Virus record (IMG/VR): IMGVR_UViG_3300033073_001271
Span: 9,824 to 73,823 of that record
From: a virus
Lineage: Duplodnaviria; Caudoviricetes
Strand: one strand, 5' to 3'
DNA length: 64,000 nt
Positions 9,630 through 61,687 of this stretch are shown here, in pieces. Every line of letters starts with the position of its first letter. The stretch's first letter is position 1. A program made the position numbers and the translations under genes. Below the pieces are notes generated by a model, which was given only the letters and a program-made list of their open reading frames with translations, was not told the origin of the DNA and made no database searches.

Positions 9630-10635
9630 TGAACTATCAGATAGAGTCCCGTCTCTAATGCAAGCCTTAAATATCGATTTTATAGAATTTCCGAATCGAG
9701 TAACTTTCCCATGTCCTATTCATGGTGGAGATAACAATGAAGGGGCTTGTATTTTTATAGATGGATCTAAAACTAAAGGTAATTGGAGGTGTTGGACCCA
9801 TTGTTGCGAAAAAGACTTTGGTCAAAATATGATTGGTTTTATCAGGGGTGTATTATCTAAAAAAGAAGGAAAAGAAATTAGCTTCTATAAAGCTCTAAAC
9901 TTTTCATTATCTTTTTTAAATAAAAAGATTCTTGATATTCCAGAAGAAAAGATTAGCGAAACTATTTACGAAATCAATAAAATCAATGAGATCGTAAATA
10001 GAAAACCAGAAAAAATCAATCTTAATCTCTCTAGAGAACAAGTCATTGAAAATTTGACAATACCATCTAATTACTATATAAATAGAGGCTATTTACCAGA
10101 AACCTTAGTGGCTTTTGATGTTGGAGAGTGTTATAATCCTAATAAGCAAATGAACAATAGAGCAGTCGTTCCAGTCTATGATATAGATGGTAGCTATGTT
10201 GGTTGCACAGGAAGAGCAATAAGTGATGACATAAAGCCCAAATGGTTTAATAGTAAGGGCTTTAAAAAAGCTCTTTATTTATATGGTATATCAGTAACTA
10301 TGCCATACATTAAACAGACAAACACAATTGTTCTTGTAGAAGGGCAGGGTGATGTTTGGAGATTGTATGAAGCTGGAATTAAAAACTGCGCTGGAATATT
10401 TGGATCTGATTTAAGTGAAGACCAGTTAGTTGCACTAGAGGAAATGTCAATCTTCAATGTTGTAATATTAACTGATACAGATGAAGCTGGTGAAAAAGCT
10501 GCCGAAAGTATAAAAAATAAAGGTGGAAGAAGATTTAATTATTATAGGCCCAAAATTTCTAAAAAAGATATTGGCGAAATGTCTATTGAAGAAATAAACA
10601 CAGAACTCAAACCTCAAATAAAAGGATTATTTTAA
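9559..10635 (+). CDS. dnaG: DNA primase (CHC2 Zn finger plus TOPRIM)
   Basis: CPIHGGDN...WRCWTHCC and TOPRIM motifs VLVEGQGD and LTDTDEAG. Probable ATG at 9559 overlaps the dnaB 3' end by 71 nt. Confidence 0.9.
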   Translation: MSLKTTTTSKYEKVSREKIYSICSELSDRVPSLMQALNIDFIEFPNRVTFPCPIHGGDNNEGACIFIDGSKTKGNWRCWTHCCEKDFGQNMIGFIRGVLSKKEGKEISFYKALNFSLSFLNKKILDIPEEKISETIYEINKINEIVNRKPEKINLNLSREQVIENLTIPSNYYINRGYLPETLVAFDVGECYNPNKQMNNRAVVPVYDIDGSYVGCTGRAISDDIKPKWFNSKGFKKALYLYGISVTMPYIKQTNTIVLVEGQGDVWRLYEAGIKNCAGIFGSDLSEDQLVALEEMSIFNVVILTDTDEAGEKAAESIKNKGGRRFNYYRPKISKKDIGEMSIEEINTELKPQIKGLF

Positions 10636-44517: not shown

Positions 44518-47500
44518 TTATCCCCCTCTTGTTTGATCCGATGCTTTCACTGCTTTTTGAACGTCTGGATGTTTAGAAACTTGATCTCTAATCCATCCTT
44601 CAATTGTTGATTTCATTGCATTGACAATGCCTTCTCCACTAACTCCCCCAACATTAACTTGGCCACCAAAAGTCACATTGTGAGTTACAGTTACTGAACT
44701 TAATTGCCCAGCTAATGCACTCATTGTTGCTGTAAATCCATTAAACGACCCAACGAAGGCGTTTAAAGATTCGATAGATTTAGCAAAACTAGTCATATCT
44801 GGCATCTGTGGAGCTTGTCCATTATTACCACCTTCTGCGTATGGATCTACACTTCCGCCTTCTTGATAACGGCGAATTTTACCGCCTGAAGAGTGATGTC
44901 CCACTCTGCCGCCGCGAGCTAAATGAACAGCGCCGCCAGATGAAAAACTAGCAGATCTCCAACCCGGTTTAGCCTGTTGCATGATTTTTTCTACGGCTGT
45001 TAAAGGAGCGTTACTTTGTTGGTATTTTCTATTAGTATATCTACTAGCGTCATTCGCAGAAGGTTTTCTAGAAAATAAACTATCTTCTTCGGCTTTCTTT
45101 TTAGCAGCTAATTGCTCTCTAGTTGGATATTTTGCCAATAGTTGTTGGGCATTTTTTTCTGGAGCAGTCCAAGTTCTACTAGATGGATTCCAAGTATAAC
45201 CTTTTCCGGGAGATTTTAGCATAGAGTCAGCTTTTGCATTTGCGGCTCTCATACTATCATACTTTTTATTACTTGCTGCTGTAGCTGCTCTTGCAGCAAT
45301 ATTACCCTCTGCTATTTTTTTTCTATATTCATCTGGATCTGTAATATTTGCAGCATCCGCTTTATATTTTGCTCTTATTTTTTCAGCATCAGTTGTTATT
45401 GCAATAGTTTGTCCCATATCGGCCATCTCACTTAGAGCGCCCGGAGTGCCTCTCATTGCAGATTGGCGAGTTCTTGCATTTCTAGCTTGTGCAAAATTTT
45501 GAGGACTATTAATAGCATCTCTATTAAGAGGATTGCCACCTAAATCCATGCGGGTATTTTCAATTCTAGCAAAATCGCTCATTGGATTTGCAGCACGTCT
45601 TTGCGCCGCTCTAGCTCTAGCCCCAGCGCGTCCACCGCGAGCGTGATATTCAACTAATCCACCAGTAGCCATTCCAGTCATGCGACCTAATATTTTGGCA
45701 GCTTCTTCTTTGGATAGATCACTAATTTGACGATTTGATGTACTAGCTAATTTTTTAGCCTGTTCTTCTTTCTTTTTTCTGTTATTAGCAATTTCACTTG
45801 AGGTGGCTTTTCTTTCTTCAGTAGCAAAAATAGTACCAAAAAATCCCTTTTTGGCTATAGAATCAGAAAAATCTGGACCTTTTTCCTTTTGTCTGTATTT
45901 TTCTGGTAAATTACGTTCTTGTAAATCATATTTATCTAATACATTTTGTCTATGAATATCTTTGGCAGTGCCAGAACGGAATTGTAAAGATGGTCCTGCA
46001 TCATACCCAAAACGATTAGCTATAGTGCCACCAATACTACCAGTCATCATATTGCGATCATAAATATTACGATTAAACCATTTGCCAAGGCTCGCAGACC
46101 AACTATCATTAAAATCTGGAGCGTTTGCACCTTCTGGACCTGCTTCAATTTCTTTTACGGCTGCTGCGGCAGAAGCTCTTTTTAAATTTGCATCAATGTC
46201 AATTTGTCTTTGATTTTCTTTATTTACAACTGGTTTTTGACTTTTTGCAATATCAACTCCAATATTAAGCAATCCATTAGCAATACCTCCAGTCGGCTGT
46301 TGAGGCATTTGTCCAAGGCCATAACCACCGCCCGGAAGAGTATAATACGGCCCAGATCTTGCCGGGATTGGCGCTGAAAATTCTGCTATATCGGCAGCTT
46401 TTTGAGCTTTTCTTCTATCCGCATTAGCAATAGCTTTTTGTCTTTTAGCATTAGCGGATCTACCATAGTTTATGGCTCTACCGCCTCTTCTTAAATAGCT
46501 AACCAATCCACCAGTTGCATATCCATTATTAATAGCGTCTAAGGTATCTGTACCGATGCTATCGACGGCACTTTTCCTAATAACATATTCACCCGGAGTT
46601 AACATAGCTGGAACAGTATCAGTGCCTTGAGGTGTGAAACCACCATCGGCTCTGTATATAATACCACCCTTTGCCCTTTTAGCGGCAGGCGGAGCGCCCG
46701 GATTTACTGGCACAGCAGCGCCCGTTTTCTTAAATGCTTCAGGATCTTTGATGAAGGATAAATAGTTATTTAATTTAGAAATATATTCGCCAAATAGTTC
46801 TATATTCTTATTAACAGCTTCTAAAGAAGTTTTTGTCGATGAGATGATATCATCTATTTCTTTGGTTGTTAGTTTAGAACTAGTAACTCCAGCAGCTTTT
46901 TGCATAGCTTTGGATTTATCTTGGCCTCTTTGTACATTACCTCTTAACTGATCATTGAAACCTTTAATTTTATCTGTTACTTGATTTAGAGCTTTAATTT
47001 GCCCCTCGCCATACATAATTTCAAGATCTTTTAATTCTTTTTGAGCGGCAATTTCTTCTTGATAAATATTTTGCAGTTCTGCAATTAATTTTTGTTCAGG
47101 TGTGGATGTTTCTGCCATGACCATATTTGCCATGTCCATATTACCACGTTTAGCAAAAAAGTTTGCAGTTAATTGCTTTTTAATATTTTTACCAGCATCA
47201 CCAAGCTCACTTAATAATGAATCGACTTGACCTCGCATGTCACTAGATATAGCATCAAGATCGCCTCCAGCCGCCATAACCTCTTGCAATGCTATAGCAG
47301 CATCATCTTTTGATTTGCGCTGTTCATCACTTCCAAAGGCATATCCAGTTGCAGCGCCGGTATATGCTTCTCTTTGGGCTTTAAACTTTTCTAATTCAGC
47401 AAGCGTGTCGCCCGTTCTTTCGCTTTGATTGGCCAGTGTTTTTAAAGATTGCTCCAGTCTATTTGCTGTGTTTTGTATTTTTCCAGCTTCGAGCGGATCT

Positions 47501-50500
47501 TTTACGCCACCGGCTAATTGACCTTTGGCATCTCTTAAATTTTTACCAATGCTTTGAACGCTGGTATATGCAGTTTTACCAATTGAGTTAAATTGTTTTG
47601 CAAATCGCTGCATATTTTTTACAGCTAATGGGACATTTTTACTGTAAGCCTTAGATATAGCTTCAACCATACGTCCATAAGAATCAACGCCTTGATTGGT
47701 TAAATCTAATTTACGATTTTCTGATTGATTAATTTTATCAAGTATTTTTAATTGTTCTTGTTCAGCTTCTGACCACGCTTGAAGAGTTTCTTTGCTCATC
47801 TTCTTGATGGCTTCAGCGTAGTCTGTAAATTCTTTAGTAATTGAATCCCTTGTATTTTGACTTAAAATACTTGGATTTGCATTTTCTACATTGCCACCTT
47901 TTCCAGTTATTTTATCTTTAATAATTTCAGATAATCTTTTTCCAACTGCACTACCAAGAGATACGCCAAATCCTTGCTCTACAGTGTCAGCGATCAACTT
48001 ATCAATTTCTTTTCCGCCGCCTGTAGCCTGAGCTTTTGCAATACTTTGCAATCCAACTTCAAGATTTGGTATAACTTTATTCAGGTCTAATAAGTTAGTA
48101 GCTAAATTTTCACCAATTGGTCCTATTGTTTTTAAAGCATCTAAAGCTGGTTGTAAATCAGCAGCATCTGGCATATCTAAATCGAATACGCTAGCGTCTG
48201 GTATAGAAGATTTTAGTCCAGCTACAGAGTCGCTAAAAGCTGCATCTAATTCGCCAGATGTCTTTGTGGCTTGTTGAATGCTAAATTTAAAGTTTTGTAA
48301 TGTAGTTTTAAGAGCTTGTTCTTCAATAAGTGTTCCAATAATAGCTTCTCTTGCAGCACGTTCTTTTAGAAGTGTTTTTTCTGTCTCCATGATTTGGAGT
48401 TTTGCTTCTAGTAATGACTTTTCAAACTCTCTAGTGCCTTGAGCTATTTCTTGATCTCTTTGCGTCGTTAAACCCTGTGCTAATTTATTATTTCCAGCTT
48501 TAGTTGCTCTTGCAATATCTGGATTATATTTAGCATTTACAATTTTAGCAATTTCTTCTTGTTGTGCTTTAATTGCCGGACCTATATCAAAGTTTTGTCC
48601 GAGTTTAGCCATGTCGCTCATTACAGTTGTTAACTTCTGTAATTTTATACCAGATAGTCTTGTAACTACATTTTCAAAATTACGAACAGCATCAGCAGCT
48701 TTATTGAATTGAGCTTTCATAGTTTCTGATCCGGTTTTTAAAATATTTGGATCAAAAGAGCTTAATTCACCTTGCGCTTTAGCAAGTTCTGTTGTCATTT
48801 TTGAGAATTGTTGATTTACATCATTTAAATCTTTATTATCAATTTTTTCAAAATATTTATTTGCATCTACTATACCTTTGCTGGCAGTTGTAAACGCCCC
48901 GCTAATTCCTTGAGCAGCAGCTTGTATTTTTGACTCATCAAAAACTTTGGCAAGTTGTGTGCCAAAGAATGTTCCAGCAAAACTACCAATTGAAGATCCT
49001 AATTGAATACCTATAGCAGTGCCAGCAGGACCGGCTAAACTACCTAATGCTCCACCTATTATAGCTCCAATACCACCTCCAGCAGCACCACCAACTGTAG
49101 CTTGAGTGCTACTTGAAGCATTATAATCAGCTTGAGCTTTTTCAGAAAGCAATAAAGTTTGTATCATGCCGTTTCTAACTTCAACTTCGTTATTTGCAGA
49201 AGTTGCAAACTTTTCCATTGCTCTGCTTAAATTTTCACCAGCCTTTTCAGCCTGAGCATTTGTTTTTGCAATTTTAGCAGCAAATACAGCTTGTGCAAGG
49301 GCATACCCCATAATCGAACCTTCGGCTGCTTTTGATGCAAGGCTTAGCCTTTTACCAAATTTTGATGGTTCGTTATCACCTTTATCTGATTCATTTGAAA
49401 CTGTGCCTGTGTGTTGCTCCAACGCTTTTCTATCAGCTTCAACGGCAGCTCTATGCTCTCTTTCCGATTTCATAGCTGCGATTTGAGCAAAGCCCATATT
49501 TTTTAAGTTTTGTCCAATTCCATTAATAGTCGCAAAAGTACCGCTAAAAGCAGTAGCCATATCTGCGAATTCTTTGTCGAATTGAGACATCTGGGAAGCT
49601 ACACCTACAACAGCAGCGCCAAGCGTTACTAATCCTGTATTTAGTGTATTACCCTTTTCTACTATCGCGTCTAATTCAGCTTTAAATTTAGCGGCAGCTT
49701 CTGTAGCCGATGCTAAAGGTGCTTTTAGACTTTGTGCGCTTTGAGCTAATGAACTAGATGAGACAAAGTTTGGATCTTTAGGAGCGTGTTTTGCAAATGC
49801 CGAGAATTGTCCAGTTGGAGTTCCTCCGTTTGCAAAATGTTGAACAAATCCGCCGTTGGCAAATTTACCAACTTTGTTCATACGATTAAGAGATGCGTAA
49901 CCAATAGCTTGGGCTGATTTTTTATTGATAACGTACTCGCCGGGAGTAAGCATAGCCGGAACTGTATCAGTTCCCACGCTTCCACCGGATGCAAATGCTA
50001 AAGTTTGTGGGGGATTTGTTTTCCACTGTTTAATAGTTTTTAACACTTTAGCTTGCTGAGATCTATCGAGATTAAATTTAGCTACACCGAAATCACTAGA
50101 TCCAGTAATTCCATTAACTAATCTAGTGGCATCTCCGGGATTATTTAAACTAAGACCTGCAATTACTGGCTTTCCAGTCTTGTCGCCTAAAGCCTTGATC
50201 ATTTTTTGTCTAAAATCAGCAGACTGCTCTCTGGTAGATTTTTCAACTGCCTGTTGTTTAGCCTTTTCTCCAGCCTTAAATTCTTTTCCAAGTGCAGATT
50301 GATAAGCCTCTTCTTGATATCTTCCGCCTTTATATGACATTGGATCATATAATAATTCTCTATCAATTTTATCGCCAACTGCTGCTGCGGCGGCTCTAGA
50401 CGCTTTAGCGTCAACAAATGGCATTTTTAAATTGGGAAAGTCGCCGCTTAATAGGGTTGGCAACCCTTTAGTAAAGTCGAACGGTCTTTTTGGATCTGAT

Positions 50501-52419
50501 TTAGGATCAAATTCACCTTTGCCCTCTGCAAAGGTTAAAATTTGCTCAAACATATTTCCATAAGAGCCTTCGTTAATAGTATCTAGAAAATTACGTTCAT
50601 TTTGTGCGGTTAATTTTATAGGTGAAATACCAGTAAAATCTTCTGATTTAGCAATTGCCGCTTCTAAACCTCTTGCTAATCCATTCTCAATTGCATCTCT
50701 AAACTTGCCATATGTTTTGGTAGAAACACCTTCTTTTTCAATTTTCCATTTTTTATTTTTTACTTTTTCAAAAAGAGGTTGATTATTTTTTTCAAGATAT
50801 TTTTTTGTTTCATTACTTATTTGGTGTGTACCGCCACTATCCCTTACACCCGGTTCTAAAATAGCTGCGCCAATTTCATTTTGATCTTCAATTTTTCCAC
50901 CTGCGGCATATTTATTAACTCTAGCTAAATTACCAATTCCTAATTTTTTAACAGAGCTTTTCTTAATAACAAATTCACCGGGAGTAAGCATAGCTGGTAC
51001 AGTATCACTATTCCCACTTCCGGGAACTAATCCACCTGTAGCAAATCCAATTCTTCCACCTTGAGCCTTTTTACCAATGCCAAGAGATTTAATTCCCGGC
51101 AACAGACTTTGGCCTATTTTTAAAGCTCCAAAACTTGCAATAAGTGGTAGTAATGGCTTTAATGTTGTGCCAACTTGAATGAAGGCGTTAGCCATTTGTA
51201 GTAATTTAGATACTGTATCTTGGAATGCTGACGACTGCGTTAACTCTTTAACAAATCTTAAGAATTCTTCGCGGGTTTTTTGAATTTGTACGGCGAGGGA
51301 TTGCTGTGCGGTGGCAGCATCTCTTGCAAGTGAACCACTAGAGTTTTGAGCTACGCCAAGGGCTTTTTGTGCAACTGCAAATTGTTGAATAAGAGGAATA
51401 ACTTTAGAAACCTGACGGAATCCACCAAGTTGTTCAACAATTAAATTAAATCTAAAATCTTTAGGATCAATAGTTGAGAGAGCTATGCTCAATCTCTTTG
51501 CTGCTTCCATTGGGCCAACGAATTGACCTTTAATGTCTTGCAACTCAATACCAAGATCTCTAAGATTATTCATTGTATCAACACGCTGAACGCGCGTAAA
51601 GATAGTTCTGAAACCTGTTGCGATACTTTCGGCTGATTCACGGGTTGTTGATCTAACGCTTGTGAATAACGCAATAAGCTCGTTTAAACTACCACCAGCA
51701 CTTTCAAATGCGGAACCTGTAGTTTTAACGGCTGTAATTAAGTCCGATGATTCAACAGCAAAGTCTTTAGAAACCTGATTAATTGCAGATAAAGATTTCT
51801 CTAAGAATGCTACTTCACTCCCAGTTCTTTGGGCCTCACGACCAAACTGGTTTAAAATAGCAATAGCGCCTTCTGTAGTGTCTTCGATTGATTTGAATGT
51901 GGCGGCTAAGTCTGTTTGGGCTAATACTTTTAACGATCCAGTTACTTTGTCGGCTGCGAAACCAGCTTGTGTTAAGTTTCTAGCAGCAACGATTAATTCT
52001 TTAGAAGATGCCCCTAGGCCAGTTGCTATATTACCAATTTCAACTTCTAGACCTCTTAGCTGCCCTACTGTTTTTCCTGTGGCTTGAGCGATCTTTACCA
52101 TTTCTCTTTCAAATTCTATAGCATCGCTAACAGCGTGCTTAATCGCTCTTGTTAAACCAACAAAAGTTCCCGTAGCAAGAGTTATAGCTGAAAAGCGTTT
52201 TGCCGCCTGAGCTATATTATTGCCAAGAGAACTTACAGATTTACTGGCTCCATCAGCAGCTTTACCAATACCTCTGATCTGAGATTCAGCGGTAGCTAAA
52301 TCCTTGATCTTAATATTGAGGTTCATACCTTGAAACTGCTGTTTTAAATTGTTTACAACTTGAGATAGGTTTTTAGTTTGTAAGTTTAATTCGGCAGTTA
52401 TAGCGAACTTTGAAGCCAT
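44518..52419 (-). CDS. Tape measure protein
   Basis: 2633 aa, Ala/Lys-rich helical. TP901-like N-terminal domain (AIEFEREMVKIAQATG...LAQTDLAAT...VSKDFAVESSDL), glycine-zipper segment. Follows the tail tube and chaperone region. Confidence 0.93.
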   Translation of the reverse strand: MASKFAITAELNLQTKNLSQVVNNLKQQFQGMNLNIKIKDLATAESQIRGIGKAADGASKSVSSLGNNIAQAAKRFSAITLATGTFVGLTRAIKHAVSDAIEFEREMVKIAQATGKTVGQLRGLEVEIGNIATGLGASSKELIVAARNLTQAGFAADKVTGSLKVLAQTDLAATFKSIEDTTEGAIAILNQFGREAQRTGSEVAFLEKSLSAINQVSKDFAVESSDLITAVKTTGSAFESAGGSLNELIALFTSVRSTTRESAESIATGFRTIFTRVQRVDTMNNLRDLGIELQDIKGQFVGPMEAAKRLSIALSTIDPKDFRFNLIVEQLGGFRQVSKVIPLIQQFAVAQKALGVAQNSSGSLARDAATAQQSLAVQIQKTREEFLRFVKELTQSSAFQDTVSKLLQMANAFIQVGTTLKPLLPLIASFGALKIGQSLLPGIKSLGIGKKAQGGRIGFATGGLVPGSGNSDTVPAMLTPGEFVIKKSSVKKLGIGNLARVNKYAAGGKIEDQNEIGAAILEPGVRDSGGTHQISNETKKYLEKNNQPLFEKVKNKKWKIEKEGVSTKTYGKFRDAIENGLARGLEAAIAKSEDFTGISPIKLTAQNERNFLDTINEGSYGNMFEQILTFAEGKGEFDPKSDPKRPFDFTKGLPTLLSGDFPNLKMPFVDAKASRAAAAAVGDKIDRELLYDPMSYKGGRYQEEAYQSALGKEFKAGEKAKQQAVEKSTREQSADFRQKMIKALGDKTGKPVIAGLSLNNPGDATRLVNGITGSSDFGVAKFNLDRSQQAKVLKTIKQWKTNPPQTLAFASGGSVGTDTVPAMLTPGEYVINKKSAQAIGYASLNRMNKVGKFANGGFVQHFANGGTPTGQFSAFAKHAPKDPNFVSSSSLAQSAQSLKAPLASATEAAAKFKAELDAIVEKGNTLNTGLVTLGAAVVGVASQMSQFDKEFADMATAFSGTFATINGIGQNLKNMGFAQIAAMKSEREHRAAVEADRKALEQHTGTVSNESDKGDNEPSKFGKRLSLASKAAEGSIMGYALAQAVFAAKIAKTNAQAEKAGENLSRAMEKFATSANNEVEVRNGMIQTLLLSEKAQADYNASSSTQATVGGAAGGGIGAIIGGALGSLAGPAGTAIGIQLGSSIGSFAGTFFGTQLAKVFDESKIQAAAQGISGAFTTASKGIVDANKYFEKIDNKDLNDVNQQFSKMTTELAKAQGELSSFDPNILKTGSETMKAQFNKAADAVRNFENVVTRLSGIKLQKLTTVMSDMAKLGQNFDIGPAIKAQQEEIAKIVNAKYNPDIARATKAGNNKLAQGLTTQRDQEIAQGTREFEKSLLEAKLQIMETEKTLLKERAAREAIIGTLIEEQALKTTLQNFKFSIQQATKTSGELDAAFSDSVAGLKSSIPDASVFDLDMPDAADLQPALDALKTIGPIGENLATNLLDLNKVIPNLEVGLQSIAKAQATGGGKEIDKLIADTVEQGFGVSLGSAVGKRLSEIIKDKITGKGGNVENANPSILSQNTRDSITKEFTDYAEAIKKMSKETLQAWSEAEQEQLKILDKINQSENRKLDLTNQGVDSYGRMVEAISKAYSKNVPLAVKNMQRFAKQFNSIGKTAYTSVQSIGKNLRDAKGQLAGGVKDPLEAGKIQNTANRLEQSLKTLANQSERTGDTLAELEKFKAQREAYTGAATGYAFGSDEQRKSKDDAAIALQEVMAAGGDLDAISSDMRGQVDSLLSELGDAGKNIKKQLTANFFAKRGNMDMANMVMAETSTPEQKLIAELQNIYQEEIAAQKELKDLEIMYGEGQIKALNQVTDKIKGFNDQLRGNVQRGQDKSKAMQKAAGVTSSKLTTKEIDDIISSTKTSLEAVNKNIELFGEYISKLNNYLSFIKDPEAFKKTGAAVPVNPGAPPAAKRAKGGIIYRADGGFTPQGTDTVPAMLTPGEYVIRKSAVDSIGTDTLDAINNGYATGGLVSYLRRGGRAINYGRSANAKRQKAIANADRRKAQKAADIAEFSAPIPARSGPYYTLPGGGYGLGQMPQQPTGGIANGLLNIGVDIAKSQKPVVNKENQRQIDIDANLKRASAAAAVKEIEAGPEGANAPDFNDSWSASLGKWFNRNIYDRNMMTGSIGGTIANRFGYDAGPSLQFRSGTAKDIHRQNVLDKYDLQERNLPEKYRQKEKGPDFSDSIAKKGFFGTIFATEERKATSSEIANNRKKKEEQAKKLASTSNRQISDLSKEEAAKILGRMTGMATGGLVEYHARGGRAGARARAAQRRAANPMSDFARIENTRMDLGGNPLNRDAINSPQNFAQARNARTRQSAMRGTPGALSEMADMGQTIAITTDAEKIRAKYKADAANITDPDEYRKKIAEGNIAARAATAASNKKYDSMRAANAKADSMLKSPGKGYTWNPSSRTWTAPEKNAQQLLAKYPTREQLAAKKKAEEDSLFSRKPSANDASRYTNRKYQQSNAPLTAVEKIMQQAKPGWRSASFSSGGAVHLARGGRVGHHSSGGKIRRYQEGGSVDPYAEGGNNGQAPQMPDMTSFAKSIESLNAFVGSFNGFTATMSALAGQLSSVTVTHNVTFGGQVNVGGVSGEGIVNAMKSTIEGWIRDQVSKHPDVQKAVKASDQTRGG
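46582..46620 (-). repeat. DTVPAMLTPGE(Y/F)V cassette, copy 3, in TMP
   Basis: Encodes DTVPAMLTPGEYV. Confidence 0.9.
49930..49968 (-). repeat. DTVPAMLTPGE(Y/F)V cassette, copy 2, in TMP
   Basis: Encodes DTVPAMLTPGEYV and shares ccgggagtaagcatagc with copy 1. Confidence 0.9.
50968..51006 (-). repeat. DTVPAMLTPGE(Y/F)V cassette, copy 1, in TMP
   Basis: Encodes DTVPAMLTPGEFV. Confidence 0.9.
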
Positions 52420-52522: not shown

Positions 52523-53380
52523 TTATTCAGATGAGTCAGCTTTCTTTTTCTTTGATTTTTTAGCTTCTTCTGGGGGTTTATCGATACTATCTATCGGATT
52601 TCCATCGTCATCCAGAAATGGAAGTTTATCAACGTCTAATCGTTGTCCATCACGATTAACTTTATAACTATTTCCATCTGAGTCATATGCAATAAAATTA
52701 CCCTGTTCATCTATTAGTCTTTCAACGTCATCAGTATCAATAGAAATTAAATGCCCTTCTTTATTTACAAAGCGACCCTGACTATCTGTAAAATTATATT
52801 TAGTAAGGAATTGGTTCTCTGGCAAATTCTTTTCATAGTTAGAATCTAGACTATATAAGATATTAGCAAGTTCACTTGCAGCTTTAACAGCCCAAGGCTC
52901 AGCGCCGCGCTCGTTATAGTCTTCTAAATCCTTGAATACTGGCTTTTTAGTTTGTGGATCTAGTGTGCAAACAGAAACTAGATAATCAAATCTTTCATTA
53001 TCTGCAACTCCTTCGGCTGTAGTGTTGTCATACGAAGTTCTTTCTGCAATAAGATCTCTAAATTCAATACGAAGTCTTTTAAGTTCAAGAGCAATAGCTT
53101 TAGCTTTCTTAAGTGGAATACCACCCTTTTCAAGAACTAATTCTCTATCGCCAATTTTCTTAACAAAATCTTTGTATTGATTTTCCTTTTCTTCGCTCCA
53201 AATTCCTTGCTCAGTTAAAAAATCATTTAACTTTGCTCGAATGATAGCCTTATCTTCTAGGGCTTTTCTCCAAGCCTTATTATAAACAACCTGAGAATTA
53301 TTTATATCCTTGCGGCTGGGCGCTTTGACAAGCACTGTTACATCGCCTTCAACCACAGTCTTCATTCCTTCTTCAGCCAT
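52523..53380 (-). CDS. Putative tail assembly chaperone
   Basis: Located between tail tube and TMP. N-terminal VLVKAPSRKDI.....Y pattern, helical and charged. Confidence 0.55.
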   Translation of the reverse strand: MAEEGMKTVVEGDVTVLVKAPSRKDINNSQVVYNKAWRKALEDKAIIRAKLNDFLTEQGIWSEEKENQYKDFVKKIGDRELVLEKGGIPLKKAKAIALELKRLRIEFRDLIAERTSYDNTTAEGVADNERFDYLVSVCTLDPQTKKPVFKDLEDYNERGAEPWAVKAASELANILYSLDSNYEKNLPENQFLTKYNFTDSQGRFVNKEGHLISIDTDDVERLIDEQGNFIAYDSDGNSYKVNRDGQRLDVDKLPFLDDDGNPIDSIDKPPEEAKKSKKKKADSSE

Positions 53381-53381
53381 T

Positions 53382-53732
53382 TTACTCTCCTCTATCTTTG
53401 AACGGTAAATTAATAGTATACTTTTTCCATGTAATTTCGTAATTTAAAAACTCATTTTCCAAATTCCTTATTTGTGTATTACCACGATCAAGGATTTCAG
53501 ACCGCATTTCTTCAAAAAATTCCCTAAGTTTTTGCTGTTCCTGTGTAGGATTATCAATATCCCAAAGAAAGCCAAAATACTTTTCCATGCTAGAAAGAGA
53601 TCCAATCATTGTAGTTTGAATCTTTTTTTTAGCAGCGCCTAGCAATCTATCTTTTGATAATTCCTTTTGGCGTTCTTCTCTAATTTGTTTAAACTCAAAA
53701 GATTTTTTTAAATACTTTGAGAATTCATCCAT
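53382..53732 (-). CDS. Hypothetical protein (tail chaperone region)
   Basis: 116-aa helical ORF between tube and TMP. Confidence 0.55.
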   Translation of the reverse strand: MDEFSKYLKKSFEFKQIREERQKELSKDRLLGAAKKKIQTTMIGSLSSMEKYFGFLWDIDNPTQEQQKLREFFEEMRSEILDRGNTQIRNLENEFLNYEITWKKYTINLPFKDRGE

Positions 53733-53733
53733 A

Positions 53734-54780
53734 TTATTGCCCTCTCGCTTTATTCATTACAGATTGATTATTTTGCATCTGTATATCAATTTGCACATCT
53801 GCAAATTCAAGATCCGATGAAATAATATCTCCTTTATTTAATAGCTGTTGCATTCTATTCTTTTTAATTTGCTGTACATGTGGCGAATTATAAGATTCAA
53901 TACGAGCAGCTTCCTGATCCGACCCAGCCATTACAAATACTTCACCAGCATTTGCAATTTTTTCATTATTAGTTAAATTATTAATTTCTTGCTCTTTTTT
54001 ATATTTTTCATTTTTACGTTTTTGGTCTATAAACCAACCATCTAAACAATCGTCATCCTCTATAACTAAATCAATAGGACTTTCTGGATTTTCATATACG
54101 CTATCATACATATTAGAATATGAACATAAAACTATTTGATCTCTAGTTAGCATTGAAGACGGTTTATTAAATAGATTTCCAGTTTTTTTACCTAAAAGCC
54201 ATATAGGTCGCCAAAGCTCAGATCTAGCTATTTGTCTAAATTCAGTTGTAGAAAATGTCTTACTTTCATAATAAGAAGTAACGTCAGTAAGTCTTATTTT
54301 TTTCCAATCGTAAGGAGTTTCGGATGATTGAAAATATGTTGATTTTTCTATAATCCAACTCCATTGAGCTAAGGATGCAATACCCTCACATGTATATTGA
54401 TCTAATTGGGCTTTTTTTCTAGCTATTTTTGATATCTCAACTTCAGTTTTTTGAATAGCGTATTTTATTCCAGCAAGTTCTTTCGGTCTAAAAACTGCTT
54501 TAAATGCATTATACTTTAACTCTTCGAGATCTTTTTTATATTTATCCATGTCAATATCATCAAATGGAGAATATAAATCTTTATCATAAAGAATTTCTAG
54601 TATTTCATCTTTTATATAACATCCTTGTTCATAAGCGTTATCATAGAACTGATCATATATTTCTATTGAATCGTATAATAAACTTGGATCAGGTTCCTTA
54701 ATATATAAAGAAAGACCATCTCTGCGGAAGCTGAGATGGCCCTTCATTATTCTATAAATCGAAAATTCCTTCCTATCCAT
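53734..54780 (-). CDS. Hypothetical protein, possible tail assembly chaperone
   Basis: 348 aa, immediately downstream of the tail tube, with AAGG RBS. Confidence 0.5.
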   Translation of the reverse strand: MDRKEFSIYRIMKGHLSFRRDGLSLYIKEPDPSLLYDSIEIYDQFYDNAYEQGCYIKDEILEILYDKDLYSPFDDIDMDKYKKDLEELKYNAFKAVFRPKELAGIKYAIQKTEVEISKIARKKAQLDQYTCEGIASLAQWSWIIEKSTYFQSSETPYDWKKIRLTDVTSYYESKTFSTTEFRQIARSELWRPIWLLGKKTGNLFNKPSSMLTRDQIVLCSYSNMYDSVYENPESPIDLVIEDDDCLDGWFIDQKRKNEKYKKEQEINNLTNNEKIANAGEVFVMAGSDQEAARIESYNSPHVQQIKKNRMQQLLNKGDIISSDLEFADVQIDIQMQNNQSVMNKARGQ

Positions 54781-54799: not shown

Positions 54800-55870
54800 T
54801 TAGGACTTTACACCTGTATTAACAATGAAGTAGTTAAAACCTTGGTATGAATAAGTTGTGGTTGCATTGCCCCCACCTGTATCGCCACCAGTGTAGTTTA
54901 CACTTGTTAGCTTATTTCTATTTCCAAGGTCAATCTTCAGTGTTCTTTGACCATTATCAAAGTACAGTTGGATAGGTTGATTAATTAGATTTTTACCATC
55001 GCCACTTGCACTTACTCTGTCTCCACTTAGAGAAACAACTTCGATTTCACATGTGGTGGCAATTGGGAATGTTGCATATTTGGTATATGGACGATATCTA
55101 CCAAGCTCGAAGATGTTTTCACGACCAATATCGGCTGTAACATTAACATTTTGAACTTTTCCATATCCAACAGCAGTTGTTACATCGCTTGGTAAAAATG
55201 TACCACTAAATGTAGAATCGTAAGTTCCACCGCTCGCATTAACGAAGTGTTGTCTGCGGAATACTGTTCCACTAGCACTACCATCATCTTTACCTTGTGG
55301 CCCGTGCAAACCAGTGGCTGCTAAATATGGATAATTAGCATTTCCAGAGGCCCAAGGTCCACCAACATTTTTTAGTTCACCAATAGGAGGAACCCATAGT
55401 TTATCATTTCCTACAAATGTTACTGATTCTGTTGAGTTACCTTCAACTGGGAATGTATACGCAACATTACTTGGTCTCATACCTGAACACCAGATGAAAC
55501 CAACTTGGTTTGTACCACTAGCTGATGTTTCTGTATCTGGATAAATCGCTAGATAAATACTTGCTTTTTGATTACTTGCAGCTACAATGTTCTGTGTACC
55601 ACTTGGACAAGATGTTAAATAAAGTAATGGATTGCCATCAATTACTTTTTCTGCTGTAACTTCAATTTCTGGTACATTTTCGATATTTTCAAAAATTGCC
55701 AATTGACCAAGTTCAAATACTTGTTCTAGATTGAAGTTTGTTGTAATACCAACTGACTGAACACCTTTCATCCAAGTGATAGTTCCAGTGCCTTCTGCAC
55801 GACCATCAGTTGGTGCAGCTTCAATGCCAAGAGCTTGGATTGCGTAAAAAATACGATTATTCTGTGCCAT
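54800..55870 (-). CDS. Major tail tube protein
   Basis: Located after the neck genes and before chaperones and TMP. GVQSVGITTNFNLEQVFELGQ and a related second repeat VQNVNVTADIGRENIFELG. GGAG RBS. Confidence 0.8.
   Translation of the reverse strand: MAQNNRIFYAIQALGIEAAPTDGRAEGTGTITWMKGVQSVGITTNFNLEQVFELGQLAIFENIENVPEIEVTAEKVIDGNPLLYLTSCPSGTQNIVAASNQKASIYLAIYPDTETSASGTNQVGFIWCSGMRPSNVAYTFPVEGNSTESVTFVGNDKLWVPPIGELKNVGGPWASGNANYPYLAATGLHGPQGKDDGSASGTVFRRQHFVNASGGTYDSTFSGTFLPSDVTTAVGYGKVQNVNVTADIGRENIFELGRYRPYTKYATFPIATTCEIEVVSLSGDRVSASGDGKNLINQPIQLYFDNGQRTLKIDLGNRNKLTSVNYTGGDTGGGNATTTYSYQGFNYFIVNTGVKS

Positions 55871-59554: not shown

Positions 59555-59555
<1 letters not shown>
59082..59555 (-). 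CDS. Hypothetical virion-associated protein
   Basis: MLGFHPLSTNPIS N-terminus, in the fibre cluster. Confidence 0.5.

Positions 59556-61687
<2,132 letters not shown>

Follow-up and report, generated by a model that had tools for sequence, protein, structure and literature searches.

A phage tape measure protein that probably joins a conserved chassis and exchangeable slots through gpH-type junction cassettes

The window analysed here is a 64,000-nucleotide stretch (positions 9,824 to 73,823) of the IMG/VR virus record IMGVR_UViG_3300033073_001271, a 73.8-kb contig from a virus of the Caudoviricetes with a CheckV completeness of about 49%. On its minus strand the window encodes a tape measure protein (TMP; P0001) of 2,633 amino acids (aa), and the results described below lead us to consider it probable that this TMP is a conserved chassis with exchangeable slots, the two being joined by junction cassettes of the type present in lambda gpH. 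The chassis would consist of the N-terminal PF10145 domain, a helical and glycine-zipper ruler with a length of about 1,050 aa and, at the C-terminal end, a further part of about 100 aa. The cassette would be the same element that is located close to the C-terminus in ordinary TMPs, including gpH, multiplied in this lineage. The segments in the slots are swapped or fast-evolving among the relatives, with breakpoints at the cassette edges, and the cassettes themselves are under strong selection at the protein level.

The assignment of the open reading frame (ORF) as a TMP is based on PF10145 (PhageMin_Tail, the TP901-type TMP family), which matches aa 133-320 with 69.5 bits against a cut-off of 33.2, and on several TMP families of the PHROG collection that match aa 10-450; a search of NCBIfam gave no match for the protein. 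The sequence-only reading, which an earlier reader had made without database searches, had placed a tape measure polyprotein at 44518-51080. That span runs from the first cassette to the stop codon, and the ORF is longer, extending from 44518 to 52419 on the minus strand. The TMP is the largest gene of a tail-like module, in which it lies between small ORFs at the position of chaperone genes and large distal-tail genes.

The same reading had described 16 di-glycine motifs in five clusters. We counted the pattern [FYMHLRK][ASRQ]xGG 18 times, compared with 2.0 +/- 1.4 in 5,000 composition-preserving shuffles, and 17 of the 18 matches do fall into five clusters (aa 451-508, 809-866, 1915-1980, 2250-2263 and 2492-2531), within which GG follows GG at a spacing of 8-9 aa. 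The DTVPAMLTPGE(F/Y)VI module that had been assigned to three of the clusters is likewise present, at aa 472, 818 and 1934. A full cassette occupies about 55-60 aa and consists of xGG, this core, two short helices and xGG again, or, as a formula, phi-(A/S/N)-x-G-G, a D-T-V-P-A-M-L-T-P-G-E-(F/Y)-V core, two short helices and one or two phi-A-x-G-G. The junctions of the TMP comprise three full cassettes and two that are reduced to xGG repeats (GG-only). When the cassette profile was run against a six-frame translation of the 73.8-kb record, no copies beyond the three in the TMP were detected. The layout of the protein, in window coordinates, is as follows.

44518-52419, minus strand: ORF of the TMP, P0001, 2,633 aa (ORF list and translation, PF10145, TMP PHROGs).
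51070-52419, minus strand: N-terminal TMP domain, conserved chassis, aa 1-450 (identity of 86-97% to the 11 closest relatives and of 69-79% to those farther away).
50881-51069, minus strand: cassette 1, aa 451-513, with KAQGG, FATGG, the core DTVPAMLTPGEFVI and YAAGG (hidden Markov model (HMM) match at aa 459-513).
49996-50880, minus strand: variable slot 1, a 295-aa orphan globular insert, aa 514-808 (missing in most relatives).
49822-49995, minus strand: cassette 2, aa 809-866, with FASGG, the core, FANGG and FANGG (HMM match).
46678-49821, minus strand: helical ruler region, aa 867-1914, about 1,050 aa (segment cluster common to most relatives).
48970-49101, minus strand: glycine zipper or hydrophobic stretch, about aa 1107-1150 (hydropathy peak at aa 1107-1138).
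46480-46677, minus strand: cassette 3, aa 1915-1980, with RAKGG, RADGG, the core, YATGG and LRRGG (HMM match at aa 1923-1980).
45673-46479, minus strand: variable slot 2, basic segment C1, aa 1981-2249, isoelectric point (pI) 9.8 (26-53% identity or missing in relatives).
45631-45672, minus strand: GG-only cluster 4, a half cassette lacking the core, aa 2250-2263, with MATGG and HARGG (coincides with regained homology).
44947-45630, minus strand: variable slot 3, basic segment C2, aa 2264-2491, pI 10.3 (34-41% identity in close relatives, absent from distant ones).
44827-44946, minus strand: GG-only cluster 5, five xGG at a spacing of 8-9 aa, aa 2492-2531 (located where relatives have a C-proximal cassette).
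44521-44826, minus strand: conserved C-terminal end, aa 2532-2633 (81-89% identity in close relatives).

The clusters therefore separate dissimilar segments, as had been claimed: an N-terminus carrying PF10145, a 295-aa insert that is not TMP-like, the helical/glycine-zipper region of 1,056 aa and two basic segments. The description of the last two as low-complexity has to be dropped, since their residue entropy of 3.8-4.0 bits is like that of the rest of the TMP. The GxxxG repeats at aa 1107-1150 are similar to the glycine zippers described for TMPs and for the N-terminus of the type VI secretion system effector Tde1, where they mediate membrane permeabilization (PMC10240207). The C-terminal ~100 aa is presumed to be the hub-binding end of the TMP, because the structures of lambda, JBD30, Douge and T5 show only the last 30-45 residues ordered in the tip.

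Evidence for the chassis-and-slot arrangement comes from related TMPs. A search with residues 440-2633 yielded 100 proteins of 1,448-4,587 aa, nearly all with PF10145, and the cassette profile matched one to seven times in each of them. When these proteins were split at the cassettes and the pieces were clustered, a shared plan was obtained: an N-terminal part of ~460 aa, a cassette, one or more variable segments divided by cassettes, a common segment of ~1,025-1,356 aa, a further cassette and a variable C-terminal part. Identity to P0001 among the eleven closest relatives amounts to 86-97% for the N-terminal part, 80-91% for the cassettes, 71-76% for the ruler and 81-89% for the last 102 aa. 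In the same eleven proteins the 295-aa insert is either lacking or has an identity of 33-77%, and identity in the two basic segments is 26-53%. The insert is missing from most relatives as a whole, and the identities of 33-77% refer to five of them.

The positions at which homology stops and restarts fall at the cassette edges. Compared with relatives P0006, P0007, P0008 and P0010, the TMP shows 86-90% homology up to aa 510-511, which is regained at aa 809-812. The breakpoint at aa 510-513, seen with relatives whose insert is a different one, is where cassette 1 ends, and that at aa 809-812 is where cassette 2 begins. Homology to P0006-P0010 is lost again between aa 2007 and 2144 and comes back at aa 2238-2287, where GG-only cluster 4 is located. 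In P0003 and P0005 there is an insertion exactly at GG-only cluster 5 (break at aa 2488-2514), and when aligned with P0017, this cluster falls on the end of the last full cassette in that protein. The cassettes are thus real domain boundaries, as the sequence-only reading had suspected, and since the segments between them are replaced or missing, and not invariant, among the relatives, its proposal that they are exchangeable stands.

The same pattern was seen in DNA comparisons. Against locus L086, the N-terminal region is 90% identical, cassette 1 92%, cassette 2 91% and the ruler 75%, and the insert is unmatched. Cassette tracts of 150-175 bp are 76-92% identical between genomes. In the segment-by-segment comparison of the relatives, cassettes are still 70-88% identical in cases in which the ruler is down to 23-31%. 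Within the gene, the three copies share 48-56% DNA identity, and the 13-aa core is kept exactly with different synonymous codons, which argues that the repeat is maintained by selection on the peptide and is not the product of a recent duplication.

The cassette is not confined to this lineage. A profile built from 89 diverse copies was compared with sequences in the PDB, and it matched the TMP of phage Douge (E 1.9e-14, two copies), lambda gpH (E 6.8e-5, aa 732-786) and the TMP of JBD30 (E 0.039). An hhalign comparison of the cassette with gpH gave a probability of 95.4% and an E value of 1.7e-8 over aa 731-785, and FATGG and YATGG flank the core in gpH as they do in the TMP of this window. 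Judged by these profile matches, the cassette is homologous to gpH residues 731-786. Pfam PF09718 (Tape_meas_lam_C) was considered as the family of the cassette and does not match it. Two other interpretations of the core were rejected: that DTVPA is a TonB box, because actinophages also have the cassette and lambda has not retained these residues, and autoproteolysis at D-T, because lambda lacks D-T. No description of the cassette was found in the searchable literature.

Among 1.84 billion cluster representatives, the number of proteins matched by the profile was 35,313 at a threshold of E<=1e-3 and 2,020 at E<=1e-30, with up to 11 copies in one protein of 7.8 kaa. Two TMP-like proteins of 7,794 and 7,872 aa (P0102 and P0103) have 10-11 cassettes; if they were end-to-end rulers, tails longer than 1 micrometre would be implied. 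Matches were also obtained in 217 records of cultured phages, nearly all of them in annotated TMPs; these phages infect Actinobacteria, Proteobacteria, Cyanobacteria and SAR11. A single copy, 22-57 aa from the end, is typical of ordinary short TMPs. In 247 multi-cassette TMPs, the median start of the first copy is aa 515 and the last copy ends at a median of 137 aa before the C-terminus, and in multi-copy TMPs the spacing between cassettes is irregular, ranging from <50 aa to ~2,500 aa with a median of 677. A C-proximal cassette of the gpH type would be expected about 70-170 aa before the C-terminus, beside the hub-binding end; in P0001 the distance from the last full cassette to the end is 653 aa, and only the GG-only cluster at aa 2492-2531 is closer, at 102 aa.

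Two further proteins with the cassette were noted in the course of these searches. In Pelagibacter phage HTVC103P (L089, 4912-6207), gp79 is an acidic protein of 431 aa whose gene lies between those for the portal and the capsid, with six xGG motifs and a C-terminal cassette core (SDSIPALLSDGEFV); it is the only clear non-TMP context in which we met the cassette. In Prochlorococcus phage P-TIM68 (L090, 4026-5897), a 623-aa "hypothetical protein" encoded in the baseplate-hub gene cluster of this T4-like cyanomyophage has two cassette matches together with matches to TMP PHROGs, and because of this combination in a hub cluster it is probably a gp29-type tape measure.

AlphaFold2 (AF2) modelling of the cassette alone (89 sequences) gave only two short helices with a predicted local distance difference test score (pLDDT) of 64.7, and the score fell below 35 when the cassette was inside a 436-aa construct. 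Because of this prediction, and because the homologous regions of the lambda and Douge TMPs are disordered in their maps, the cassette appears to behave as a linear or partner-dependent element and not as an autonomous domain.

The content of the slots varies among the relatives. In P0003 and P0005 a slot carries an ADP-ribosyltransferase (ART) that has STS and ExE motifs and scores 38.9-39.2 bits with PF03496, for which the cut-off is 23.4. The domain has a cassette on both sides in P0005, and its upstream junction in P0003 is reduced to a single LADGG. In locus L008, an ART-like segment is followed by half a cassette and then by a member of the insert family of this window's TMP. Most other inserts of the relatives had no match in Pfam. 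The HExxH motif occurs in 58 of 246 multi-cassette TMPs; P0001 has no HExxH motif, no cysteine and no peptidase match in Pfam.

The insert of P0001 (aa 514-808) has a conserved core of ~190 aa with the invariant elements GAAIL, FE, RPFDF and DAKAS. In the alignment of the insert family, the invariant E114, D137 and D159-A-K161, which correspond to TMP residues ~626, 649 and 671-673, follow the order E...D...(D/E)xK of PD-(D/E)xK nucleases. A nine-sequence profile of the core found nothing significant in PDB sequences or Pfam, shorter stand-alone homologues of the insert were not found, and a search of JGI metagenomes produced one weak locus. An AF2 model of aa 445-880 had a mean pLDDT of 43.8, with values of 35-57 over the motif region of the insert. 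We regard the insert as an orphan domain, for which nuclease activity is only a lead.

The mechanism that we prefer, tentatively, is that a protease processes the chain at or beside the xGG motifs and so frees the segments. The cassette would then be a functional junction inherited from a gpH-type maturation region, and processing would resemble that of lambda, in which gpH gives rise to gpH* and gpHC, and that of T5, in which the site is R1127|AEGG. As TMPs exit the tail before the DNA does, the segments in the slots could be delivered to the host envelope or cell. The cassette tracts shared between genomes can be envisaged as crossover points. A bolder version, which we consider doubtful, is that the phi-(A/S/N)-x-G-G motif and the DTVPAMLTPGEFV cassette jointly form a near-universal TMP maturation signal that marks the cut in gpH and in tens of thousands of other TMPs, and that its multiplication in one large lineage of uncultured phages produced a polyprotein releasing exchangeable effectors into the host ahead of the DNA; among the effectors would be ADP-ribosyltransferases, nuclease-like domains and basic proteins.

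The cleavage of gpH was reportedly first described in 1974, and to our knowledge T5 pb2 is the only TMP with a residue-mapped cut. The cut that generates gpH* lies in a region rich in glycine close to the C-terminus, and gpH residues ~690-817 are disordered in the lambda map (PMC12617516). The masses of the gpH fragments put the cut at ~aa 710-737, a position either a short way upstream of the cassette or on the first xGG belonging to it. T5 pb2 is cut after R1127, which frees a 92-residue enzymatic fragment (PMC10038345). The bond that is cut is R|AEGG. In the 1,219 aa of pb2, [FYMHLRK][ASRQ]xGG matches only twice, one of the two being RAEGG. TMP cleavage has recently been proposed for myophages as well (phiTE; PMC11972413).

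Several observations weigh against the processing mechanism. In lambda the cut, which is unmapped, may be 10-25 aa upstream of the cassette. No homology to the cassette is detectable in T5 pb2, the link to T5 being a five-residue motif only, and the T5 cut precedes AxGG and does not follow GG. Profiles of clan-CE, JAB and NlpC/P60 proteases (PF00770 and PF02902, both searched at E<=1, and PF14464, PF01398 and PF00877) were all unmatched in the 73.8-kb record; as this record is about 49% complete, the absence of a clan-CE protease from the phage is not proven, and all our negative results on encoded proteases refer to the record only. The two AF2 helices fit docking on a partner as well as they fit a cleavage site or linear motif. 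The insert has no homologue of known function, and the cargo role of the insert and of the basic segments is putative. Cleavage at the junctions of this TMP itself may occur; it is plausible by homology and position, on circumstantial evidence. In 88 loci inspected for genes split at cassettes, only ordinary short TMPs with a single C-proximal cassette end just past a cassette, and a GG at the TMP's C-terminus, present in 17 of 246 proteins, is not a general feature.

The alternative that survives best, and one that we hold possible if unlikely, is that nothing is cut: the cassettes would be structural elements that fold on a partner, zipping three or six TMP chains together or docking to the tube lumen, hub or chaperones, and the inserts would stay tethered. 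The lack of an autonomous fold in the AF2 models is in line with such an element, and the strong conservation of the cassette points to a sequence-specific partner. The constant position of the first cassette, the placement of the last one near the hub-binding end and the negative protease search of the record are also in agreement with docking. On the other hand, the homologous region is disordered in the cryo-electron microscopy maps of both lambda and Douge, and the irregular spacing between copies fits no tube periodicity. Furthermore, HTVC103P gp79 combines the cassette with xGG motifs in a non-tail context, and cleavage in this neighbourhood does take place in the TMPs of lambda and T5.

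One could also envisage that the cassettes act after ejection, each binding a component of the host envelope (a periplasmic chaperone, peptidoglycan or a membrane protein) and thereby positioning its segment. The HK97 TMP is reported to depend on host FkpA and PtsG (Cumby et al. 2015), the cassette has invariant residues that include two prolines and a Gly-Glu turn, and gp79 of HTVC103P places the element outside tails. Such binding is nevertheless improbable, given that few envelope components are common to Actinobacteria, Proteobacteria, Cyanobacteria and SAR11, all of which have phages with the cassette, and that we found nothing pointing to a specific host partner.

Even less probable is a purely passive role, in which the cassettes are recombination scars or homology anchors without any function in the protein. 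The coincidence of the breakpoints with the cassettes and the high DNA identity of the tracts between genomes are expected from such anchors, but the identical 13-aa core written in different codons by divergent in-gene copies, the conservation of cassettes next to rulers that have diverged much further, and the persistence of homologues in phages that span phyla together indicate purifying selection on the cassette peptide. Finally, the mechanism put forward in the sequence-only reading, cutting after each xGG by a cysteine protease like adenain, pS273R of African swine fever virus (ASFV) or Ulp, is hardly credible: its sole support is the roughly nine-fold excess of GG motifs over chance, whereas neither PF00770 nor PF02902 was found in the half-complete record, the mapped T5 cut is before AxGG and not after GG, and the logo of 3,418 GG sites (F/Y/L at P5 in 58%, A/N/S at P4 in 73% and V/I at P2' in 66%) differs from the (M/I/L)-x-G-G pattern of adenain-, ASFV- and Ulp-type proteases in having a hydrophobic residue at P5 and a small one at P4.

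The gene neighbourhood of the TMP is conserved among relatives and poor in recognizable families. The module encodes, in order, proteins of 322, 356, 348, 116 and 285 aa, the TMP, and proteins of 1,426, 747 and 1,199 aa, and the same order is found in L082, L083 and L084. Ten tail-module neighbours of the TMP had no match in Pfam or PHROG, which indicates that the phage is very divergent, and searches of PDB sequences with the 285-aa and 1,426-aa neighbours were empty. Across the late or structural module (26789-63806, minus strand), 18 of 20 large ORFs tested lacked a PHROG match. No close relative was present in the cultured-phage collection, and no prophage relatives were found in representative bacterial genomes.

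The 285-aa and 116-aa ORFs (52523-53380 and 53382-53732, minus strand) occupy the usual position of the G/GT tail assembly chaperones. They are one base apart, with neither an overlap nor an obvious frameshift arrangement; they are conserved in every relative examined and have no family or PDB match. Upstream of these chaperone-position genes are two adjacent ORFs of like size, 348 and 356 aa (53734-54780 and 54800-55870, minus strand), which may be paired tube paralogues; the L084 homologue of the 356-aa ORF has a faint Phi812_tail_tube match. Farther away, at 59555-61687 on the minus strand, a 710-aa protein matches collagen-like or tail-fibre PHROG families over residues ~20-80, and its homologue in L083 bears Pfam Collagen repeats.

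TMPs with functional domains (T5, TM4, SPbeta YomI and P1 Sit), TMP cleavage (lambda and T5, and as a proposal phiTE) and polyvalent proteins were known before. What is apparently new is that a conserved gpH-type cassette is used repeatedly to join the parts of a modular TMP with exchangeable payloads, and that this cassette is linked to the cleavage zone in lambda; the literature on TMPs with ADP-ribosyltransferases, polymorphic toxins or polyvalent proteins yielded no description of this architecture. Since a conserved and easily mutated element lies beside the lambda cleavage zone and recurs in ~35,000 cluster representatives, its role can be tested in lambda. If the chassis-and-slot reading is correct, the tail ruler serves some phage lineages as a modular carrier with a fast turnover of payload slots, and such a carrier would be an effector route separate from that of head-packaged proteins. 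A chassis with cassette-bounded slots could also explain the variation in TMP length among closely related uncultured phages, and it cautions against deriving tail length directly from TMP length.

Among the closest known systems, lambda gpH shares the junction element: residues 731-786 are homologous to the cassette, including both flanking xGG motifs, and lie between a glycine-rich hydrophobic stretch and the hub-binding C-terminal helix, in the part of the chain near which gpH is cut as the tail matures. The single cassette of gpH is ~70 aa from the C-terminus and no domains are inserted, whereas the TMP described here has three full and two degenerate cassettes across 2,100 aa, bounding non-homologous segments. 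T5 pb2 resembles it in that an enzymatic (muralytic) C-terminal module is severed from the ruler by a maturation cut on an xGG; it differs in having no detectable cassette homology, a single cut and a single cargo domain. The mycobacteriophage Douge gp16 (cassettes at aa 963-1034 and 1411-1472) and Pseudomonas phage JBD30 gp46 (aa 1016-1087) contain the cassette itself, and only the last 33-42 residues of these TMPs are ordered in the baseplate. With one or two cassettes and no documented swappable inserts, they differ from the TMP of this window, and cleavage of the JBD30 TMP was only speculated on by its authors. TM4, SPbeta YomI and P1 Sit, the TMPs that carry cell-wall hydrolase motifs, are a precedent for domains brought into the envelope; theirs are single peptidoglycan-acting domains, for which no repeated delimiting cassette or module exchange has been described. 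Polyvalent proteins (PMC5512222) are similar in being giant virion-delivered polypeptides that string together unrelated effectors, ADP-ribosyltransferases among them, and are thought to be processed into units. They are head-packaged or conjugative and are defined by an embedded zincin-like metallopeptidase (MPTase), with TMPs not mentioned in that study (PMC5512222); the TMP of this window, in contrast, lacks HExxH, and its units are bounded by a non-enzymatic cassette.

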